Assembly: GCA_964016885.1 (NCBI GenBank)
Contig: OZ024742.1
Location: 358,794,001 to 358,858,000 of the forward strand
Reading direction: 5' to 3'
Source: Eledone cirrhosa
Taxonomy: Eukaryota
Length of the DNA stretch: 64,000 nt
Under the pieces are notes generated by a model that saw only the letters and a program-made list of their open reading frames with translations, was not told where the DNA came from and did no database searches. The translations under genes were made by a program, and so were the position numbers. Below, piece by piece: positions 43,502-64,000 of this stretch; positions within the stretch are counted from its first letter, which is position 1; each line of letters opens with the position of its first letter.

Positions 43502-44695
43502 AGTATAACTTTGAAATGTTTTGGCCAGTATTGGCCCAGGCCATGTCTAACTTAATAGCACCACCTGGCGAAGTCTTTCAATTCAGGATTTGGGCACCAT
43601 GGCCCATTCGAGAAGAGAATTACTGTTTGCGGAGACATATCCGGGTGTGGGTGGTTTGTCCGTGATTACTTGGAGGAATTTTTCCAAAGACTTCTTGAAT
43701 TTTGTGTGGTCAGTTTCTGTTTTGACGTGTCCTGATGTGATGTTGAAGAGAGCAGGGCCAATTGAGGTGAAATAATTGTGCCGTATTGTTGTTATGAGTT
43801 GCGATTTAGAATTTTGTTTGGGACGGATAGCACGGGGCCCAAGCCTTGGGTGTAATTTGAAGGTGATGCCAACATCATTTGGGCAGTGATGATGAAACAT
43901 TTTCCACATCATGCAGATAATATAACGCTCACGGCGACGTTGGAGTGAGTAAAGTTTCAGCTTTTCTAGTCGACCCCAGTAGTCAAGGTCTGACATGCCA
44001 TCTATCTTTTTCGTGATTGCCCTTTGGGGAGCTTCAAGTTTCATGATACTTTGTTTCGTGTGGGGAAACCACAGTGGACAACAGTATTCAAGGTGTGGTC
44101 GGGCAAATGTAGAGAAGAGAAGGATAATGGTGTGGGAACCTCTCAACTGGAAGGTTCTGAGGATCCAGGAAAACATTCTGCGGGCCATGTCAACGTTGCT
44201 GCTTATATGCGTGGCCCAGCTTATGTTGCTGTCCACGGTTACTCCCAAGTCTCTGATGCTGTTAGATGCCACGAAAGTTTCACCGGAGGGAAGGGAGTAC
44301 GGGAGTTTCAGGGCATCCTCTTTTCCAAAGTGGATCAGTTCGAATTTGTCTTCGTTCAGTAACATGTTGTTCTTTTCCGCCCATTGGGTAACAGCCAGTA
44401 GCTCTGACTGAAGGCTTATCCGGTCATCCACGCCATCGATGACCTTTTGGAGCTTGGAATGATCAGCAAAAATTCTAATGTTGCTGTGTTTGATGATGTC
44501 AGTGATGTCATTAATATAGATGATGAAGAGAAGTGGGCCCAACACAGTGCCTTGTGGGACCCAACTACTGACTTTGGCTGGGCTGGATTTGACTCCTTCG
44601 ACTACAACATGTTGGGTTCTGTTTGACAGGAAGCTCTTGATCCACTGTAGCAGCTTTCCAGTGACACCAATATTGGACAGTTTTCTCAGTAGAAT
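43501..44695 (-). mobile_element. CR1-group LINE 3' portion (RT and C-terminus), inactive
   Basis: [76 protein letters not shown] is changed to WVPQG and FADD to FADH. Stop at 43583, short 3' UTR, and (TA)n on both sides. Confidence 0.9.
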
Positions 44696-47114: not shown

Positions 47115-49415
47115 TTAAACCTTATTTAATGTTGGTCTATATTTTTGAATAAACATATTTTCCTTATTTATTCGCATTTGTTCTGTTGTATTGTTAGCGC
47201 AAAGGTAAAATGGGAAGACTTGGAATTTGGGTGTCTTATTACTTGCGCAAATGTCTAGATGTGCACTTAGTGGTATTTGTCTCGTGGTTGGATCTCGTAA
47301 TTGTTGGCGATGAACTGTCATTCTGTTTGTGAGTGTGAGTTTAGTTTGTCCTATATAATCTTCATTGCATCCTTTACATTTAATGGCATAAATTAGATTT
47401 TTTGATGAGCAAGTGAAGTGATTTTTTACAGTAAAATTTTGTCCTGATTTAAATGTATACGTGTTGCCTTCAATGAGGTGAGTGCAGGTTCCACAATTAG
47501 AGCGACCACATTTTTTGATACTTGGTTGTGGGTTTGTGGTAGGTAATTTGGCATTGGTGAGTAATGTTTTCAGTGATTTTGGTTGTCTTTTGCTTTTGAT
47601 TATTTTGTGTGTTTCAAGGGCTTTTTTCATTCTTGGGTTTTGTTTTAGTAGTGGGATGTTATTGTGAATAGTGTTGTAAGCTTCCGCATTTCTTGGGTTG
47701 TGTGTTGAGATATATGATAGAATATTGGACGTACCTTGAATTTGTTTCTGTTTCCGTAATTCATCAATGCCTATTGCTTTAGCCCTTTCTATTCCATTAT
47801 TTATTAGTAATAGTGGGTAATCTCTCTCAAGTAGAATTTCCTTTAATTCTTGAAGTCTTTTATTTCGCGTTTCATAATTGGAGACAATTGTGCAAATTCT
47901 TCTTGCTAGGTTAAAAGGAATGTTCGTCTTCGTGTGCTTTGGATGGTTGGAGGTGAATAGCAGATATTGTTTGGAATCTGTTGGTTTGTAGTGTATGTCA
48001 GTTTCGATATTTGTGTCTTTTTTTGTGATTAAGATGTCCAGAAATGGGAGTTGATCTTGGCTGTATTCCATTGTGAATTGGATGTGGTTATTGATGCCGT
48101 TTATTAAGTTTTTGAAATCCTTCAGTTGGTCGAGTGTGTGGGACCAAAGAATGAGGCAATCATCCAAGTAGCGTTTCCAATTCTCTGATAAATATTTGTG
48201 GAAGTTCAATCCGTATTTTGATTTGGACTGTTCATATATCTGGACTTCTAAGTATGCCATGACTAAGTTGGCATAAGTTGGAGCGGCTTTTGTGCCCATC
48301 GCAGTCCCCTATATTTGCTTGTAAGTATTGCCATCGAAATCAAAAAAGTTGTTCTGTAGGATGAATTTTAATCCCTCGGTGATGAAGCTTTTTTCTATTC
48401 TGTCAGGTATCTCATTGGGATATTTCTCTAGCCAGAATCCTATTGCTTCTAGTCCGTATTGGTGTGGGATCGTTGTGTAGAGATTCACTACATCGAAAGA
48501 CACAATAATAGTGTCGTTGTTGACATGTTTGGGGAGGTGGTTTAAGAGGTCCAGATCGTCTCTTACAAGGCTTGGTATGTGTTTCAGTATTGGTTTCAGT
48601 AGTATGTCTATAAAGTTGCTCAATCTGTGTGTTTCACATTGTGGGCCCGCTACAATTGGTCTTAATTTAAGGTCTGTGGGGTATTGTGTGTTCACGCAGG
48701 CTGAGGTGGATTGTTTACAGGCATCGTTGATTATTTTACATTTGTGGATCTTCGGAAGTCCGTAAAGGTTGCTGGTTTTGTATTCAAAATTTGTTAAATA
48801 ATCGCATTCCTTTTTAGTTAGGTCTTCCTGGTATCGATAAATCAGTGTGTTTAATTTGGTCATTATTTTTGATTGCTGGTAGTTTTTTACTCTTTCATAG
48901 TAATTAGCATTTTGTAAGAGAGAGAACATAGAATTTTTATATTTTTCAGCCTCCATAATGACAACAGTACTTCCCTTGTCCGCTTCCTTAATTACAATGT
49001 CCGGATTGTTTTTTAGTTCATGGATAATCTCCCATTCCCTTCGACTTGTGTTGGGTTTGGGTTTAGGTTGCGGTAGTTCATGGTATGGGAAGGTAGCTAT
49101 GTGGTCACAAAATTTGTCCAGAACTCTGTTTCTACCTTTTGTTGGGTTGTAGCTGCTTTTATTCCGTACAATTGATTCGTCGTTATTCTCCTTGTCAAAG
49201 AATTCCTCTGTGAGACGTAATTTTCTACAGAAGTGTGAGATATCGTCATTTATCTCGTTGGGGTTAGGATATTGTGGTGTTGGTGTGAATTTTAGACCTT
49301 TGGAGAGAATTTTTACTCGTTGGGCTGAGAGGTTTGTATTTGAAATGTTAATTATTTTCGGTTTTTCAAAATCGGTTTGTGCCACCGGGTGTCGTGAGTC
49401 CTGTAGCCTTGGTCT
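47115..49415 (-). pseudogene. PLE reverse transcriptase + GIY-YIG endonuclease frame with one in-frame TAG (48309-48311)
   Basis: IKEADKG, LYGLPKIHK, LRPIV, SFDVVNLYTTIP, YKQI*GTAMGT..PTYANL, RYLDD, LPFLDI, CGRSNCGTC, NLIYAIKCKGCNEDYIGQT. The two listed ORFs (48309-49385 and 47115-48299) are in the same frame. Confidence 0.93.
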
Positions 49416-50554
49416 AAAAAATGATTTTTCTGGAATGTTTTTTCATTGGTATTATTATATCTAATGGTATTTCCCCTGTTGTTGTGTGGTCTTGTATAGA
49501 AGTTTCGGACGTATTGAGGTTCGGTTTGTTGATAGTCCGGGTTGTAGATTTGGTTCCTTTGTGTGGGTTGGGATCTATGGTTTTGGAACAGGCTCTGTGT
49601 GGGCAGGGGTCTACGGTTTTGGAATAGGTTTTGTGTGGGTTGTGATCTGCGGATCAGGTCCTGCCTTGTGTTCGGAGATCTTTGGTTTTTGTTAGTAGGG
49701 TTATAGTTTTGTCTATGGTTTCTGGGATTATCGTTATAGTTTTGCTGGGGGTATGTTGGACGTTTTGTTACTTTTTTTGTTATTTGTTGTGCATGTGGTG
49801 TGTGAGTTTTAGTTTGTTTTAAAAATGGGTTACCTGTATGTTGTTCATTTTTGAAGTCCATTTCGTAGTTGTTGAACCAGGTGGCGTTTTTTTCCCATCG
49901 CTGGAGGGATGTGAGTTCTTCATCCTCACAGTTTTCTTTCCAAAGTTTTAGGGTTTTTTTGTAGAGTAGGCCTTCAGAGTGCTTTGAGATTTCTGTGGCC
50001 ATCTGTTGGTCGAGTGACTTGAATTTTTCTTCGTTGGAGTTGGCTCTTAATCGCAACAGTTCTATTTCTGTTTTAAATTTTTCCAATGCCATCTTTTCCC
50101 TAAGTCTTTGTTGGTTTTCTGGTTCATTCGGGATGGGTTTTATTTGGAGTTTTTGGGGGAGGATGATTGGGGTAGAGTTTAGCCACTTTTCATATATGCC
50201 TGCCTTGCCATTATTTTTTAGGAGATTCCAAAGGGCGAATTTGCGGGGTGTGAGCTTTTGAGTCCATATGTTGATTAGGGTGTTTTTCACTGAGTGGACA
50301 TCTCGTAGATTGGGTTCTAACGGTTGTTCAAGCTTTTGGAGCATTGCTGTTGCAATGGTTTCGATTAGCTTAGTTAATACTGGAGTAATATTCGTCTCTT
50401 GGGTATTTTCTGTTTCTTCGTGGGGTCCTTTTTTATAGATGTGTATTTGGTCCACTTTGTTGGTCAAAATTGAGAGTTTAGAGGAAATCTCTTTGAGTTC
50501 ATTTAAGATGTCCTGGTTCAGTGAGTTGTTGTTTTGTTGAGACTTTGGTGACAT
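49352..50554 (-). CDS. PLE ORF1, 400 aa: helical/coiled-coil-like N-terminal part and Q/N/R/P-rich low-complexity C-terminus
   Basis: Intact ATG-initiated ORF (context aaaATGt) about 25 nt downstream of the pseudo-LTR-matching leader. It overlaps the RT frame. Confidence 0.75.
   Translation of the reverse strand: MSPKSQQNNNSLNQDILNELKEISSKLSILTNKVDQIHIYKKGPHEETENTQETNITPVLTKLIETIATAMLQKLEQPLEPNLRDVHSVKNTLINIWTQKLTPRKFALWNLLKNNGKAGIYEKWLNSTPIILPQKLQIKPIPNEPENQQRLREKMALEKFKTEIELLRLRANSNEEKFKSLDQQMATEISKHSEGLLYKKTLKLWKENCEDEELTSLQRWEKNATWFNNYEMDFKNEQHTGNPFLKQTKTHTPHAQQITKKVTKRPTYPQQNYNDNPRNHRQNYNPTNKNQRSPNTRQDLIRRSQPTQNLFQNRRPLPTQSLFQNHRSQPTQRNQIYNPDYQQTEPQYVRNFYTRPHNNRGNTIRYNNTNEKTFQKNHFLDQGYRTHDTRWHKPILKNRK
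49415..49421 (-). promoter_or_regulatory. Candidate -1 ribosomal frameshift slippery site U_UUU_UUA
   Basis: ORF1 codons caT TTT TTA (H378-F379-L380). A -1 slip enters the RT frame (AGA CCA AGG...), and a hairpin follows about 7 nt downstream. Confidence 0.7.
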
Positions 50555-50659
50555 TTTCGGTCTTCGTGTGGTGGGTATATATTAGAAAGTGAGGTTTTTT
50601 TTTACAAAATGAAAAATAACCGAGGTGTCCTACACGAGTGGAAGTATAAAGAAAAAGGG

Positions 50660-55772: not shown

Positions 55773-57025
55773 AATAATGATTTCATTTATTCGCCACAAG
55801 GGCCGACATATAGGGGACAATACAAAAGACTGGGACAGTGGGGTTTTACAGAAAAATCGAGTAAACAATATGAATAACAATAACAAAGTAACAATAAAGT
55901 AACAAGAAAATTACAAGAAAAAATTCCCCAATAGGGCGGATGACCACCTAGGGTTCGCTCAGGTACCCCACCAGTCCTGAACGACCAGACGCTTCGTGAA
56001 CACCCTGGAAGGGCACCCCTCTCCTCTTCAAATTTACCTACCTACAGCCACATGACCAGAGTAGGCCCACTCACACAGGCCATTCTCGCCACATTCGCCC
56101 ACCTTTCAGCAAATGTACTGGAGGGCAGCACTTCTCTCTCCACCCTCACCTCCCTTTCCAAGTAAAACTTGAAAATGTTGATGAGGGATTGGCGGAAGAG
56201 AAAAGTGTCTGTCTTCAGTCCTTTCAACCTCGTCCACCATACAACCTCTTTCACTACTGCCACCAGACAGAGGAAAATTGCCTGCCCTTCCTGGCCAAAA
56301 GAAGGCGGCGGGTCGATCTTCACTATGGACTCGGCCGATAGCCGGATCCGTTCTACACGCGACAACAGCTGTTCAACATAACTCCACAAGTCAGTAATGC
56401 ACGGACACTGGACGGTTTCGTCGCTCTGCGCGCATCTCGGGCAGGTCCGTCTGACAGCACTTCCGTGCCTGTAGAGTTTATCTCAAACCGGCAGCCCCCC
56501 CCCCCCCCCCCGGTAGCACTGCCAAGCGAGGGATTTTTGGAAATTATCCATCGTCCCCGGCTCGAAAGTCCTCCGGTACAGACTGGTTAGTTCGACTTCG
56601 TTGACTGCCAGAGCCTCTCCGAGTGCGTCGTCGCACTTGCCCACTACTAATCCTCAGTAGAACTCGAGAGTGGAAGTTCCACTGACCGCATTGCCCGCCT
56701 GGTAGAGGGCAGTAAGTGCCTGGCAACATTCCAGATGCCAGTCACCCAGTCTCGGTCTCTTCTTGACCCAGGACTGCAACTCAGTTAAAGAAACGAGCTG
56801 CGGAAAGGCCCGCCTGACAAACGGCGACCATACCTGTTCACCGTTTGGGCAGAACATCTGGAGATGCCGCAGCCTCAGCGCGTGCCTGCGCATCATTAGC
56901 CACGGCATGCCCAGCCCTCCACGTAGAGGGTGCTGGCAGCAGATGGACCGCCTCACCAGCGGAATCTGACCCCTCCACAAGAATTTGAAGAGGAGCCGCT
57001 CCAAGAAGGCGAGGCGGAACGGGAT
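55773..57025 (-). mobile_element. L1/Tx1-type LINE 3' fragment, decayed
   Basis: LERLLFKFLWRG..CQHPLRGGLGMP, a zinc-binding region AWQCYRG..DKLYRHG..TCPRCAQSDETV, and frameshifts. The 3' UTR has aataaa before a (tta) tail, and the region is GC-rich. Confidence 0.85.
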
Positions 57026-57099
57026 ATTTAACAACAAATAATTTTAACAGGCAAATAAAGCAACTTACTGGGAGCGAGCAAAATACGTTCGCTTAGACC

Positions 57100-57330
57100 A
57101 ATAATAATAATAATAATTGTCTCTACTTTAGGCACAAGGCCAGTAATTACTCAGTGCATTACAATAATAATAATGATTTTTGATTTGGACACAAGGTCAA
57201 CAATTTCAAGGGAAGAGGAAAGTCGATTAAATCAACCCCAGTTCGTTACTGGTACTTAATTGCAGCGATACTGTACGGATGAAAGACAACGCTAACCTTC
57301 GCGGGATTTGAACTCTGAAATTTACGAAGC
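57100..57330 (-). mobile_element. SINE family A fragments, reverse
   Basis: ggcacaaggcc.. twice; actggtactt..ggatgaaag..gcgggatttgaactc. Confidence 0.65.
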
Positions 57331-57357
57331 GCTGGGAAGATTAAGTTGACATAAAGA

Positions 57358-57597
57358 ATGATCTGTTCATGTACAGAGATATATAATAGCTTAGAGAATA
57401 GGATGAAAACACTTTAAAGACGAGAAAATAATTAGCCATCGGCCGCTATGAGGAGTTGAACCCCATATCTGGCATTAGGCGTGATCTGGGGTTCCATTCC
57501 TTATGACGGCCAATGTCAATATCTTTTTCGCCTTTAAAGGGTCTTCACCCTATTTTATAAGCTATTTTGTAAATTCTCCTTGTATGAGCACATCATA
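57358..57597. repeat. Old imperfect inverted repeat (~110-bp arms); related arm at 55060-55175
   Basis: aatagctta..aatagg.tgaa..ctttaaag.cga..ttgaacccca / tggggttc..tcgcctttaaag..ttcaccctatt..taagctatt. Confidence 0.6.
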
Positions 57598-57954
57598 CTA
57601 TCTGGTACCAAATAATAGGTGGTAAGAGGGAGGAAATCGATAATTTTTCGAGGTCTACGCCTTCGATGTTTTCTAAAAACCAGAATTAGTCGTTTAGTTT
57701 ACATACCCACAATCCATCCTATTTATTGTGTAACGTATGTGATTTCTTGTAATGTTCTTTTTTTGTCAAGTTTAATTATTTTTTATGTCTAAAAAAATAA
57801 TTGTCGCAGGGATGCTACCACTTAAAATAAAATTTCGCTGGCGATAAGTTGGCAAAATGTAATAGGCGGGGGTGAGGAGGGACATTATTCGGACCCGAGT
57901 GTATTAAACAAGTCATCTCTCTTATTTTGTGTACTTAACTAAACTTAACATAAA

Positions 57955-58275
57955 AGCACGTGACTTAGTGTTTAGGGTGTTCGGTTCATGATCGTAAGGC
58001 CGCGAGTTCGATTCCCAGTGGCGCAATGTGTCCTTGAACAAGATATTTTATTTCACGTTGTATCACTCCACGCAGCTGGCAAAAATTATCTGTACCTTTA
58101 ATTTGAAGGGGAAACCTTGTCATATTCTGCGTCACGTTGAATCTCCCTGAGAACTGCATTAATTTTACGCTTGTTTATGGAATGCTTAGCCACTTACACG
58201 TTAAATCACAACAACGCTATTCCGTAGATCGAATCAACTGGACCACAAATCGTCGTAACAGACGTAGTGCCAGTT
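57955..58275 (+). mobile_element. SINE family B-related (long form)
   Basis: gcacgtgacttagtgtttagg..gagttcgattccc..gtgtccttgaacaaga..tatttcacgttg. Confidence 0.75.
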
Positions 58276-58286
58276 TAAACACAAAT

Positions 58287-60590
58287 CGCAGTCACATACA
58301 CACACTCTCATACGCAGTCACACACACACACACACTCTCATACGCAGTCACACACACACACACACTCTCATACGCAGTCACACACTCACACACTCATACG
58401 CAGTCACACACACACACACTCCCATACGCAGTCACACACTCACACACTCATACGCAGTCACACACACACACACTCCCATACGCAGTCACACACTCACACA
58501 CTCATACGCAGTCACACACACACACACTCTCATACGCAGTCACACACTCATACGCAGTCACACACACACACACACTTATACGCAGTCACACACACACACT
58601 CATACGCAGTCACACACACACACTCCCATACGCAGTCACACACTCACACACTCATACGCAGTCACACACACACACACTCATACGCAGTCACACACACACA
58701 GACTCTCATACGCAGTCACACACTCACACACTCATACGCAGTCACACACTCACACACTCTCATACGCAGTCACACACTCACACACTCATACGCAGTCACA
58801 CACACACTCTCATACGCAGTCACACACACACACTCTCATACGCAGTCACACACTCACACACTCATACGCAGTCACACACTCACACACTCATACGCAGTCA
58901 CACACACACACACTCCCATACGCAGTCACACACTCATACGCAGTCACACACACACACTCACACACTCATACGCAGTCACACACTCACACACTCATACGCA
59001 GTCACACTCACACACTCATACGCAGTCACACACACACACTCTCATACGCAGTCACACACACACACACACACTCATACGCAGTCACACACTCACACACTCA
59101 TACGCAGTCACACACACACACACTCTCATACGCAGTCACACACACACACTCTCATACGCAGTCACACACACACACACACTCATACGCAGTCACACACACA
59201 CACACTCTCATACGCAGTCACACACTCACACACTCATACGCAGTCACACACACACTCTCATACGCAGTCACACACACACACTCTCATACGCAGTCACACA
59301 CTCACACACTCATACGCAGTCACACACACACACTCTCATACGCAGTCACACACACACACACACTCATACGCAGACACACACACACACACTCTCATACGCA
59401 GTCACACACTCACACACTCATACGCAGTCACACACACACTCTCATACGCAGTCACACACACACACTCTCATACGCAGTCACACACTCACACACTCATACG
59501 CAGTCACACACTCACACACTCATACGCAGTCACACACACACACACTCCCATACGCAGTCACACACTCATACGCAGTCACACACACACACACTCACACACT
59601 CATACGCAGTCACACACTCACACACTCATACGCAGTCACACTCACACACTCATACGCAGTCACACACACACACACACACTCTCATACGCAGTCACACACA
59701 CACACACACACTCATACGCAGTCACACACACACACACTCTCATACGCAGTCACACACTCACACACTCATACGCAGTCACACACTCACACACTCATACGCA
59801 GTCACACACACACACACTCTCATACGCAGTCACACACACACACACACTCATACGCAGTCACACACACACACACTCTCATACGCAGTCACACACTCACACA
59901 CTCATACGCAGTCACACACTCACACTCTCATACGCAGTCACACACACACACTCTCATACGCAGTCACACACTCACACACTCATACGCAGTCACACACTCA
60001 TACGCAGTCACACACACACACACTCCCATACGCAGTCACACACTCACACACTCATACGCAGTCACACACACACACTCACACACTCATACGCAGTCACACA
60101 CACACACACACTCATACGCAGTCACACACTCACACACTCATACGCAGTCACACTCACACACTCATACGCAGTCACACACACACACACTCTCATACGCAGT
60201 CACACACACACACACACTCATACGCAGTCACACACACACACACTCTCATACGCAGTCACACACTCACACACTCATACGCAGTCACACACACACACACTCT
60301 CATACGCAGTCACACACACACACTCTCATACGCAGTCACACACACACTCTCATACGCATTCACACACACACACTCATACGCAGTCACACACACACACTCT
60401 CATACGCATTCACACACACACACTCTCATACGCATTCACACACACTCTCATACGCATTCACACACACTCTCATACGCATTCACACACACACACTAATACG
60501 CAGTCACACACACACTCTCATGCGCAGTCACACACACACACACTCTCATACGCATTCACACACACACTTTCATACGCATTCACACACACG
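58287..60590. repeat. Minisatellite catacgcagt + variable (CA)n/CT
   Basis: Roughly 100 units of about 18-30 bp; the last units shift to catacgcatt. Confidence 0.95.
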
Positions 60591-60652
60591 TAAAGACACA
60601 TACACCCCATCACAAGTGACGGATTTAATGGTGGCGTAGGGAAGAGGTTACC

Positions 60653-61115
60653 CGCTAGCTGCAGTGGTGTCCAGCAGCGAGGGCGGCCGTAGCAGTTTAA
60701 TTGTGCCAGTAGCTCGCCCCGCTAGCTGCAGTGGTGTCCAGCAGCGAGGGCGGCCGTAGCAGTTTAATTGTGCCAGTAGCTCGCCTCGCTAGCTGCAGTG
60801 GTGTCCAGCAGCGAGGGCGGCCGTAGCAGTTTAATTGTGCCAGTAGCTCGCCCCGCTAGCTGCAGTGGTGTCCAGCAGCGAGGGCGGCCGTAGCAGTTTA
60901 ATTGTGCCAGTAGCTCGCCCCGCTAGCTGCAGTGGTGTCCAGCAGCGAGGGCGGCCGTAGCAGTTTAATTGTGCCAGTAGCTCGCCCCGCTAGCTGCAGT
61001 GGTGTCCAGCAGCGAGGGCGGCCGTAGCAGTTTAATTGTGCCAGTAGCTCGCCCCGCTAGCTGCAGTGGTGTCCAGCAGCGAGGGCGGCCGTAGCAGTTT
61101 AATTGTGCCAGTAGC
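60653..61115. repeat. 67-bp GC-rich tandem repeat, 7 near-identical copies
   Basis: Unit cgctagctgcagtggtgtccagcagcgagggcggccgtagcagtttaattgtgccagtagctcgccc. Confidence 0.95.
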
Positions 61116-61304
61116 TCTCCACTCCAGCTTCACGGTGCTAACAACTTCATTTAATACCTGTGTATATAACTTTTCAATTCCAAAGATGGTAGCAACGATG
61201 AAAACATCTGGTGGTGGTGGTACTACTACTACCACCACCACCACTACTACTACTACCACTACTACCACCACCACTACTACTACCACCACCACCACTACTA
61301 CTAC

Positions 61305-61643
61305 CCGAAGACCCCCTTCAGTCACGAATGACCATGGGATTTGTACCTAGAAAGTTTTCCTCCGAGTCACAAGTCCAGGTAAGGTTGTTTGTGGAAGAGC
61401 ATCAGTCACCCATGTATACCAGTCTCCCCTCTCCACGCCACCGATGTTGTCCAAGGGAAAGGCAATGGCCAATACAGCTTGACACCAGTGACGTCACAAC
61501 TCACTTCTACAGCTGAGTGAACTGGAGCAACGTGAAATAAAGTGTCTTGTTCAAGGAAACAACACACCACCCGGTCTGAGAATTGAACACACAACCTTTT
61601 TGATTGCAAACCCAATGCTCTAACCACTAAGCCATGCACCTTC
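61305..61643 (-). mobile_element. SINE family B, reverse, embedded in the ACT/ACC repeat
   Basis: cagctgagtgaactggagcaacgtgaaataaagtgtcttg..ctaaccactaagccatgcacct. Confidence 0.85.
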
Positions 61644-64000
61644 ACTACTACTGCTACTACTACTACTGCTACTACTACTACTGCTACTACTACTACTACT
61701 ACAACCACCACCACTGCAAATACTACTACTACGGCTGCCACTACTAATACTACTACTACTACAACCACTACCACTGCAACTACTACTACTACAACCACTA
61801 CCACTGCAACTACTATTACTACTACGGCTGCCACACTAATAGTACTACTACAACCACCACCACTGCAAATACTACTACTACGGCTGCCACTACTACTGCT
61901 ACTACTACAAACACTACCACTGCAACTACTACTACTACTACTACAACCACTACCACTGCAACTACTACTACGGCTGCCACTACTAATACTACTACCACAA
62001 CCACTACAACTGCAACCACTACTACTACGGCTGCCACTACTAATACTACTACTACTACAACCACTACCACTGCAACAACTACTACTACAACCACTACCAC
62101 TGCAACTACTACTACTACTACTACAACCACTACCACTGCAACTACTACTACGGCTGCCACTACTAATACTACTACCACAACCACCACCACTGCAACTACT
62201 ACTACTACGGCTGCCACTACTACTGCTACTACTACAAACACTACCATTGCAACTACTACTACTACAACCACTGCTACTGCAACTACTACTACTACGGCTG
62301 CCACTACTAATACTACTACTACAACCACTACCACTACAACTACTACTACTACGGCTGCCACTACTAATACTACTACTACAACCACTACCACTGCAACTAC
62401 TACTACTACAACCACTACCACTACAACTACTACTACTACGGCTGCCACTACTAATACTACTACTACAACCACTACCACTGCAACTACTACTACTACAACC
62501 ACTACCACTACAACTACTACTACTACGGCTGCCACTACTAATACTACTACTACAACCACTACCACTGCAACTACTACTACTACAACCACTACCACTGCAA
62601 CTACTACTACTACAACCACCACCACTACAACTACTACTACTACGGCTGCCACTACTAATACGACTACTACAACCACTACCACTGCAACTACTACTACTAC
62701 GGCTGCCACAACTACTACTACTACAACAACCACCACCACTGCTACTACTACTACCACCACTGCAACTACTACTACAATGGCTGCCACTACTAATACTACT
62801 AATACAACCACCACTACTGCTACTACTACAACCACCACCACTACTACTACTACTACAACCACCACCACTGCAACTATTACTACTACTACTAATACTACTA
62901 ATACAACCACCACTACTGCTACTACTACAACCACCACTGCAACTACTACTACTACTACTACAACCACCACCACTGCAACTACTACTACTACGGCTGCCAC
63001 TACTAATACTACTACTACAACCAACACCACTACAACTACTACTACTACTACGGCTGCCACACTAATAGTACTACTACAACAACTACAACTACTACTACTA
63101 CGGCTGCCACTACTAATACTACTAATACAACCACCACTACTGCAACTACTACTACTACTACTACAACCACTACCACTGCAACTACTACTACTACTACGGC
63201 TGCCACTACTATTACTACTAATACATCCACCACTACTTCTACTACTACAACCACCACCACTACTAATACTACTACAACCACCACCACTGCAACTACTAAT
63301 ACTACTACTACAACCACTACCACTGCAACTAATACTACTACGGCTGCCACTACTACTACTACTACTACAACCACCACCACTGCAACTACTACTACTACGG
63401 CTGCCACTACTACTACTACAACCTCCACCACTGCAACTACTACTACTACAACCACTACCACTGCAACTACTACTACTACGGCTGCCACTACTAATACTAC
63501 TACTACAACCTCCACCACTGCAACTACTACTACTAATACTACTAATACAACCACCACTACTGCTACTACTACAACCACCACCACTACTACTACTACTACT
63601 ACAACCACCACCACTGCAACTACTACTTCTACAACCACCACCACTGCAACTACTACTACTAGTACGGCTGCCACTACTAATACTACTACTACAATCACTA
63701 CCACTGCAACTACTACTACTACGGATGCCACTACTGCTACTACTACAACCACCACTACTACTACGGCTGCCACTACTAATACTACTACTACAATCACTAC
63801 CACTGCAACTACTACTACTACGGATGCCACTACTGCTACTACTACAACCACCACTACTACTACGGCTGTCACTACTAATACTACTACTACAACCACTACC
63901 ACTGCAACAACTACTACTACAACCACTACCACTGCAACTACTACTACTACTACTACAACCACTACCACTGCAACTACTACTACGGCTGCCACTACTAATA
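61644..64000. repeat. Compound (ACT/ACC)n satellite with higher-order units (acggctgccactactaat; acaaccactaccactgca)
   Basis: Directly visible; continues past the window end. A short tract also occurs at 61221-61304. Confidence 0.95.

Follow-up and report, generated by a model that had tools for sequence, protein, structure and literature searches.

Penelope-like elements (PLEs) that carry an endonuclease (EN+) are, in their canonical form, described as having a single open reading frame (ORF) (PMC8557442), and Neptune has been called a single-polyprotein element alongside the two-ORF Coprina (PMC13159263). The legend to Fig. 1 of PMC8557442 marks an ORF1 separable by a frameshift with a pseudoknot and uses CC for coiled-coil, so that linkage by a frameshift has already been published for some PLEs. 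In the supplement of that paper the word frameshift was met twice, both times for Chlamys. The literature searched, which lacked most subscription papers, contained no description of programmed frameshifting in EN+ PLEs, and the accessible parts of PMC3846280 and PMC6515669 add nothing on it. The element analysed here lies on the minus strand of a 64,000-nucleotide stretch of the genome of Eledone cirrhosa (contig OZ024742.1, positions 358,794,001 to 358,858,000), which we call the window and to which all coordinates refer. Unlike the single ORF of canonical EN+ PLEs, a separate 400-aa ORF1 here overlaps at -1 the frame (pol) for reverse transcriptase (RT) and endonuclease (EN), and it is very probable from the conservation of a U UUU UUA heptamer in the overlap that a programmed -1 frameshift joins ORF1 to RT-EN in what would be a Neptune-type EN+ PLE. 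U UUU UUA is also the gag-pol heptamer of HIV-1. The two systems are alike in the heptamer, in its phase and in having a structural ORF ahead of an enzyme ORF. In HIV-1 the slip is on the UUA codon with a structure downstream (PMC13712778).

ORF1 runs from an ATG at 50554 to a TAA at 49354-49352, and the pol frame, which is 775 codons long (49442-47115) and includes N-terminal motifs, RT, linker and endonuclease, opens past a TGA at 49445-49443, so that the two frames overlap by 91 nt. Within the overlap, T TTT TTA (49421-49415) is in exact X_XXY_YYZ phase with ORF1, where it encodes Phe-Leu, and a -1 slip leads into pol. Frame reading bore out a first-pass annotation of the window on the extent of ORF1, the opening of pol and the phase of the heptamer. 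It had also put the first in-frame ATG of pol about 140 codons downstream, after IKEADKG and inside the conserved N-terminal region; the ATG does lie after LSKGLKF and EADKG, at 48956 (codon 163), and is about 154 codons past the heptamer. We infer that ribosomes would slip back one base at U UUU UUA to make a minority ORF1-RT-EN fusion, and that most would stop 20 codons on, releasing free ORF1. The slipperiness of the heptamer itself may suffice, possibly aided by a queue behind a ribosome terminating at the ORF1 stop.

The two-ORF layout is family-wide and is not the product of an indel. The genome searched for copies is about 3.0 Gb, and the window element's own family (family A) gave 1649 candidates at first look, the 40 that were scored being 99-100 % identical; the family is young and high-copy. 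Six T's are present at 294 of 327 family A junctions, seven at nine and some other arrangement at 24 (six- and seven-T counts from an exact pattern, the total from a gapped one). The seven-T copies are mostly more decayed, sharing 91-99 % identity with an intact copy versus 99.4-100 % for six sampled six-T copies. The seven-T majority that the first-pass annotation had named as speaking against programmed frameshifting was thus not found. An independent contig of 1598 bases from another organism covers positions 48827-50424 with 36 substitutions and no gaps, and no indel was seen among the 12 rows of raw reads inspected out of 20 at the junction.

Two other families in the same genome, B and C, were found by a genome search with a distant ORF1. 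They share 52 % (B) and 58 % (C) identity with family A in the ORF1 core and 53-55 % in the N-terminal part of pol, and in each of them T TTT TTA is in phase with ORF1 and pol lies at -1. The T-run is six long in 45 of 45 family B locus matches (not de-duplicated), and the first 100 listed of 405 family C junctions comprise 88 with exactly six T's, four with seven, five that are one base short and three with a substitution. When the same genome was searched twice more with distant ORF1s, the top matches, not classified individually, resembled families A-C by place and frame length.

Beyond this genome, 117 outside loci (numbered with the prefix L) were collected, 69 of which cover the pol N-terminus. 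A tree of pol built from 48 rows (53 were chosen and five dropped for broken frames) and made up of unnamed loci only contains a clade on a long stem that unites families A, B and C with L110, L111, L114, L117, L124 and L183, and L116 and L118 were assigned to it by ORF1 homology. L171 lies close to the clade and begins too late to inform on the junction. In each of the 11 informative clade members a heptamer lies in phase close to the point at which the -1 frame opens, namely U UUU UUA in eight, U UUU UUG in two (L124 and L183, reading T TTT TTG T) and A AAA AAC in one (L117). Heptamers of other types occur in phase 0-5 times per ORF1 body, and U UUU UUA is found at the junction only in all eight of its holders. 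Homology to the ORF1 of the window is strong for L110, L114, L116, L118 and L183. An in-phase slippery heptamer, the conservation of which the first-pass annotation proposed to check in relatives, is therefore kept in families B and C and in eight outside relatives, with pol at -1.

The same junction has left a trace in proteins. A profile search retrieved 825 representatives of ORF1 at E<=0.001, the best 150 all being no longer than 496 aa, and 1027 pol homologues at E<=1e-50, the best 120 being 622-803 aa (range searched 422-1346). Among the 75 ORF1 homologues of at least 340 aa, two of which belonged to the search query, 63 carry Phe-Leu among their 40 final residues, within tails that are otherwise unalignable; earlier 40-residue windows gave 3, 3 and 9, and 2000 shuffles gave a mean of 6.2 and a maximum of 14. 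The residue ahead of this Phe-Leu is never E, K, Q, M or W (0/63 versus a background of 21 %), which is informative because these residues have no T-ending codons, the codons of protein-only homologues being deduced from the residues. A metagenome scan with a single protein and a viral scan gave no matches.

Several observations weigh against a programmed frameshift. Raw-read depth at the junction is low (about 16-25), 12 of the 75 long homologues lack the terminal Phe-Leu, and one of the 150 matches (P0167) continues from ORF1 to pol without a change of frame, as do some family B copies, fused in frame via a variable C-run. Within the clade, ORF1 homology is weak for L111 and none was shown for the truncated contigs L117 and L124, L114 and L117 were flagged as long branches meeting, and, as a heptamer, U UUU UUG is less canonical. 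Family B also has an AUG eight codons ahead of the first conserved N-terminal motif of pol; that families A and C have none before these motifs speaks in favour of a frameshift. There is no conserved downstream RNA structure detectable by energy folding or by a crude H-type search, long-range or protein-dependent structures being beyond the reach of both. Finally, TTTTTTAG is also a textbook 3' splice acceptor.

This last point gives rise to a rival, in which a spliced mRNA joins an upstream exon to pol and the unspliced RNA gives ORF1. It is favoured by the G that directly follows U UUU UUA in eight of eight loci, by the G, E, D or A (GNN codons) after Phe-Leu in 44 of the 63 homologues, by the AUG of family B just past the junction, and by the conserved introns noted for PLEs in the Fig. 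1 legend of PMC8557442. However, the residue after Phe-Leu has no G-starting codon in the other 19 of the 63, L124, L183 and L117 have no AG there, and an acceptor needs neither six T's nor the Phe-Leu phase. Families A, B and C have just one phase-2 GT in common, which is poor as a donor and would create a TGA in A and C, and an exact pattern for intron-less genomic copies, which misses donors with T at those positions, returned none. Four further read runs of patchy cover and uncertain kind contained no joint at the junction. On balance we regard splicing as very unlikely.

It is no less improbable that pol is started separately, by re-initiation or by a leaky or internal start at an AUG or GUG under the ORF1 Arg-Trp codons, with the U-run incidental. 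Family A has a candidate internal start of this kind, a GTG in the pol frame at 49384-49382; family B has an ATG at the same place, G is the next base in both, and five of the closest pol matches were called from M-E or M-A there, where the M may stand for a GTG or TTG codon. In a more distant PLE group, ORF1 and pol are also linked by overlaps of AUG and stop. Against this, family C, which is equally young and abundant, has nothing at that site and no AUG, GUG or CUG ahead of the conserved motifs, the D-T-R-W codons of A and B differ at ORF1-frame third positions only, which points to protein selection on ORF1, and a fixed heptamer is left unexplained. The remaining alternative, a copy-specific or assembly homopolymer error that splits a single-ORF element, could draw on the nine seven-T copies and on the one-frame family B copies and P0167, but it is already refuted by the junction counts, and the agreement in phase among three families and eight outside relatives, the ungapped independent contig and the 63 homologues that end soon after Phe-Leu leave it with practically no chance of being right.

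Current annotation of EN+ PLEs, which keeps the RT-EN frame only, leaves a large ORF1 family (the 825 representatives, with no Pfam model) unnamed and causes such junctions to be read as damage. The result suggests control of the ratio of ribonucleoprotein (RNP) protein to enzyme in a retroelement class that is sister to telomerase.

As the stimulator of the slip, the first-pass annotation had proposed a hairpin or pseudoknot. Minimum free energy folding does place a weak hairpin at 49407-49381, 7 nt downstream of the heptamer, but at -7.8 kcal/mol (z -0.44) it is matched in stability by 30 % of 300 shuffles, and the crude pseudoknot score, from a non-energy H-type search, is equalled by 68 % of shuffles. 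Folding of the downstream region gives z of +0.7 to +1.1 in family B and of -0.7 to +1.3 across eight clade members, and family C is unfolded there (0 kcal/mol). Hence, the hairpin exists as a fold and is not conserved in family C, a hairpin or pseudoknot stimulator was rejected, and the stimulator is probably not the hairpin.

The position of the ORF1 stop offers another candidate. Phe-Leu is present in the last 50 residues of 82 of 106 full-tail proteins (C-termini of protein-only entries unchecked against contig ends), and the number of codons from it to the C-terminus is below 10 in none of the 82, exactly 10 in 25, 20 in nine, 30 in three and 40 in one; the expectation from pol DNA is about 54 % under 10 codons and 3.5 % at exactly 10. 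Outside this filter two shorter gaps were seen, one codon in L114 and six in one protein. The 10-residue tails share a pairwise likeness of only 10 %. At the DNA level the gap is 10 codons in family C, L116 and L124, and 20 (family A), 19, 12, 12, 17, 19, 16 and 1 in the other members. Because 23 of the 24 ten-codon rows in a quick tree (at least seven changes) fall in one 37-row clade that includes families A-C, the ten-codon gap appears from the tree to be one long-kept trait and not 25 independent events. Seven of the nine 20-codon cases resemble close kin of family A, and in families A and B the ORF1 stop is formed by the pol K-I-I codons.

Ribosomes of the 80S type are spaced about 10 codons apart. 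Since the 10-codon gap is about one ribosome length, a ribosome terminating at the ORF1 stop (in family A the TAA at 49354-49352) is a possible roadblock, and we tentatively suggest, as an idea that is somewhat more likely to be wrong than right, that it could make the trailing ribosome slip, the stop being held one ribosome length behind the heptamer (10 codons; 20 in family A) as a structure-free signal in a widespread EN+ PLE lineage. When one ribosome was stalled at a stop in engineered E. coli reporters, -1 slipping of the trailing ribosome increased about 2-fold, with a peak at a 9-codon spacer (Smith et al. 2019, PMC6815119), and in human cells disomes build up at stop codons (bioRxiv 2023.02.01.526718). 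The arrangement here is like that of the reporters in having a heptamer one ribosome length upstream of a stop without RNA structure (mode of 10 codons versus the peak at 9), and unlike it in that the reporters are engineered and bacterial, whereas this would be a natural, selected eukaryotic signal, deduced from spacing only, with family A at 20 codons. The avoidance of gaps below 10 while many above 10 are tolerated is not obviously explained by a queue, and a minimal length of the ORF1 tail is an alternative explanation for the absence of gaps below 10. If the queue is real, enzyme output would depend on ribosome load and termination speed, and a mechanism shown in engineered bacterial reporters would have a natural eukaryotic case. 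The 10-codon gap thus poses a testable question, namely whether stop-codon ribosome queues act as natural frameshift stimulators in eukaryotes.

By the definitions of PMC8557442, the sequence features assign the element to the EN+ PLEs of Neptune/Nematis type. Pol has RT features of PLE type, with the DKG N-terminal motif and the core motifs; the N-terminal motifs are KIINIS, LSKGLKF and EADKG (48986-48972) and those of the RT are YGLPKIHK, SFDVVNLY, GTAMG and RYLDD (48173-48159). Most listed pol homologues have RVT_1 or GIY-YIG; in the window copy, where pol is split, neither half gave a Pfam RVT_1 match. The EN+ status given in the first-pass annotation is upheld by a C-terminal GIY-YIG endonuclease at 47399-47127, which passes the curated cut-off of PF01541 (E 1.1e-6) and in LIYAIKCKGCNEDYIG has two Cys between GIY and YIG (CCHH), followed by two His. 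A C-x4-C-x2-C linker, CGRSNCGTC, at 47510-47484 is the mark of Neptune/Nematis as defined in PMC8557442. Pol also resembles, by eye, Neptune1_Nv in the supplement alignment of that paper. The Neptune features shared with the window element are the succession of RT, C-x2-5-C-x2-C linker and C-terminal GIY-YIG with two Cys, partial pseudo-long terminal repeat (pseudo-LTR) tandems and (TA)n flanks; a putative hammerhead-like motif near the 3' end would be a further one. Pol showed no sign of a protease, RNase H or integrase. Esterases have been mentioned in Neptune-like PLEs (PMC5408684).

At the ends of the element, partial pseudo-LTR repeats, direct or inverted, are present in all six copies examined, and TA tracts at the ends of the window copy and of other copies agree with a (TA)n target preference. 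The 3' untranslated and pseudo-LTR region (47114-45933) ends in a (TA)n tract and contains a hammerhead-like motif at 46041-46004 with a palindromic ACCGGU and a variant core (UUGAAAA...GAAA), recognized by eye from the consensus, in which UUGAAAA replaces the usual CUGANGA. This motif is common to families A and B, with a stem II that differs in B and still pairs, and was also seen at 2284 and 7147 of L108. Rfam reported no hammerhead match at E<=1, only microRNA look-alikes on TA repeats. A CCG/GT near the 5' end that was considered as a splice donor belongs to the hammerhead-like motif and was discarded. Upstream of ORF1, the 84 nt at 50659-50576 are the same as the 3' end of L102, L104, L105, L106 and L109 and form an upstream pseudo-LTR end or tandem junction; an N gap lies upstream of this stretch, and a loose TATATA ends at 50576.

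The frameshift-marked PLE of the legend mentioned at the outset is presumably EN-minus Athena. The window element is like the frameshift-linked PLEs in that RT is preceded by a helical ORF1 to which a frameshift, here a probable one, connects it, and is unlike them in having an endonuclease, in being dispersed in (TA)n and not telomeric, and in having no conserved pseudoknot. With GIY-YIG present and copies on many contigs, it is not an EN-minus element of the Athena kind. It differs from HIV-1 gag-pol in that there is no conserved stimulatory stem and no significant capsid match for ORF1.

The ORF1 protein consists of an N-terminal helix, a conserved helical core at approximately aa 85-240 and a low-complexity tail rich in N, Q, R, P and T. 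An AlphaFold2 model based on 117 sequences predicts that the N-terminal helix is followed by three long ones at aa 94-237 (predicted local distance difference test 89 and predicted template modelling score 0.69 for aa 1-260). The model gave no fold matches at E<=0.001 in PDB and BFVD, and its best VIA Z of 8.7 is to generic three-helix bundles. No Pfam family is common to more than one of the 117 members, a PDB sequence search with ORF1 returned coiled-coil and low-complexity matches only, and one with pol returned none. A role as a Gag capsid was considered on an Atlas gag-like lead of 0.86, which is below the lead threshold and unsupported by the model or the fold searches. The description of the element as gag-pol-style in the first-pass annotation therefore fits the recoding logic only, ORF1 having predicted long helices and no significant match to a capsid or other fold. 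LINE ORF1 proteins are oligomerising RNA-binding scaffolds, and by analogy we infer that the helical bundle and basic low-complexity tail could make ORF1 an oligomerising RNA chaperone or RNP scaffold.

The window copy itself is dead in RT. Its pol is truncated by an in-frame TAG at 48311-48309, just before GTAMG, which the first-pass annotation overlooked and which, among the 30 best-matching loci, is carried only by the window and one identical locus (C2). The stop is absent from almost all covering raw reads in two runs. The 1146-aa fusion (380+766) proposed earlier thus applies to copies with open frames (400 and 775 codons) and not to the window copy, with its private stop in RT. The identical locus, L106 (G000:C2:300931500-300940500), matches window 50659-47650 at 100 % along 3010 bases, sharing the private stop as well as the other changes peculiar to this copy. 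It could have arisen by recent duplication, as a daughter copy or as assembly fill next to the N gap. In family B, the C-run that lies 24-40 nt past the heptamer (at the L071 junction and other loci) varies from seven to about 20 bases, sometimes fusing ORF1 and pol, and the variation may be sequencing or replication slippage.

Other arrangements were found among more distant EN+ PLEs. One group from a single assembly, with 29-31 % pol identity (L163, L166, L167, L173, L176, L177, L180 and L182, also L164 and L165), has, 225-375 nt ahead of the KIIN-like motif of pol, an in-phase G GGU UUY at the end of ORF1, with a stop 0-2 codons on. Its ORF1 is rich in Q, P and G with no homology to that of the window, and its members share a hairpin pattern, GAC-AG-GCAG...CTGC-A-GTC, for which RNAalifold support is modest (four pairs, two with double changes). 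This may represent a second frameshift signal, of structure type, and counts in favour of the frameshift reading of the window element. In L129, L132, L135, L137, L140 and L147, also EN+ PLEs, the stop of an upstream ORF overlaps or abuts the pol AUG (ATGA in four, ATG-AA-TGA or ATG-AA-TAG in two), which suggests termination-reinitiation as a third link between ORF1 and pol. L121, L122, L123, L156, L157, L170 and L189 have a long open pol frame that is extended by a basic stretch at its N-terminus and is not overlapped by another long ORF, and are probably of the single-ORF type. PLE RTs in L183-L226 are in contigs filed as bacterial metagenome-assembled genomes, and these contigs are likely contamination from animal hosts.

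Elsewhere in the window, a fragment of a non-LTR (LINE-type) RT, identified by motif only (VPQGTVLGP...FADHSKL), lies beside a TA tract at 43583-44690 on the minus strand. The region at 56000-64000 is GC-richer (43-56 %), with strong negative GC skew and positive AT skew, and is unlike the remainder of the window.

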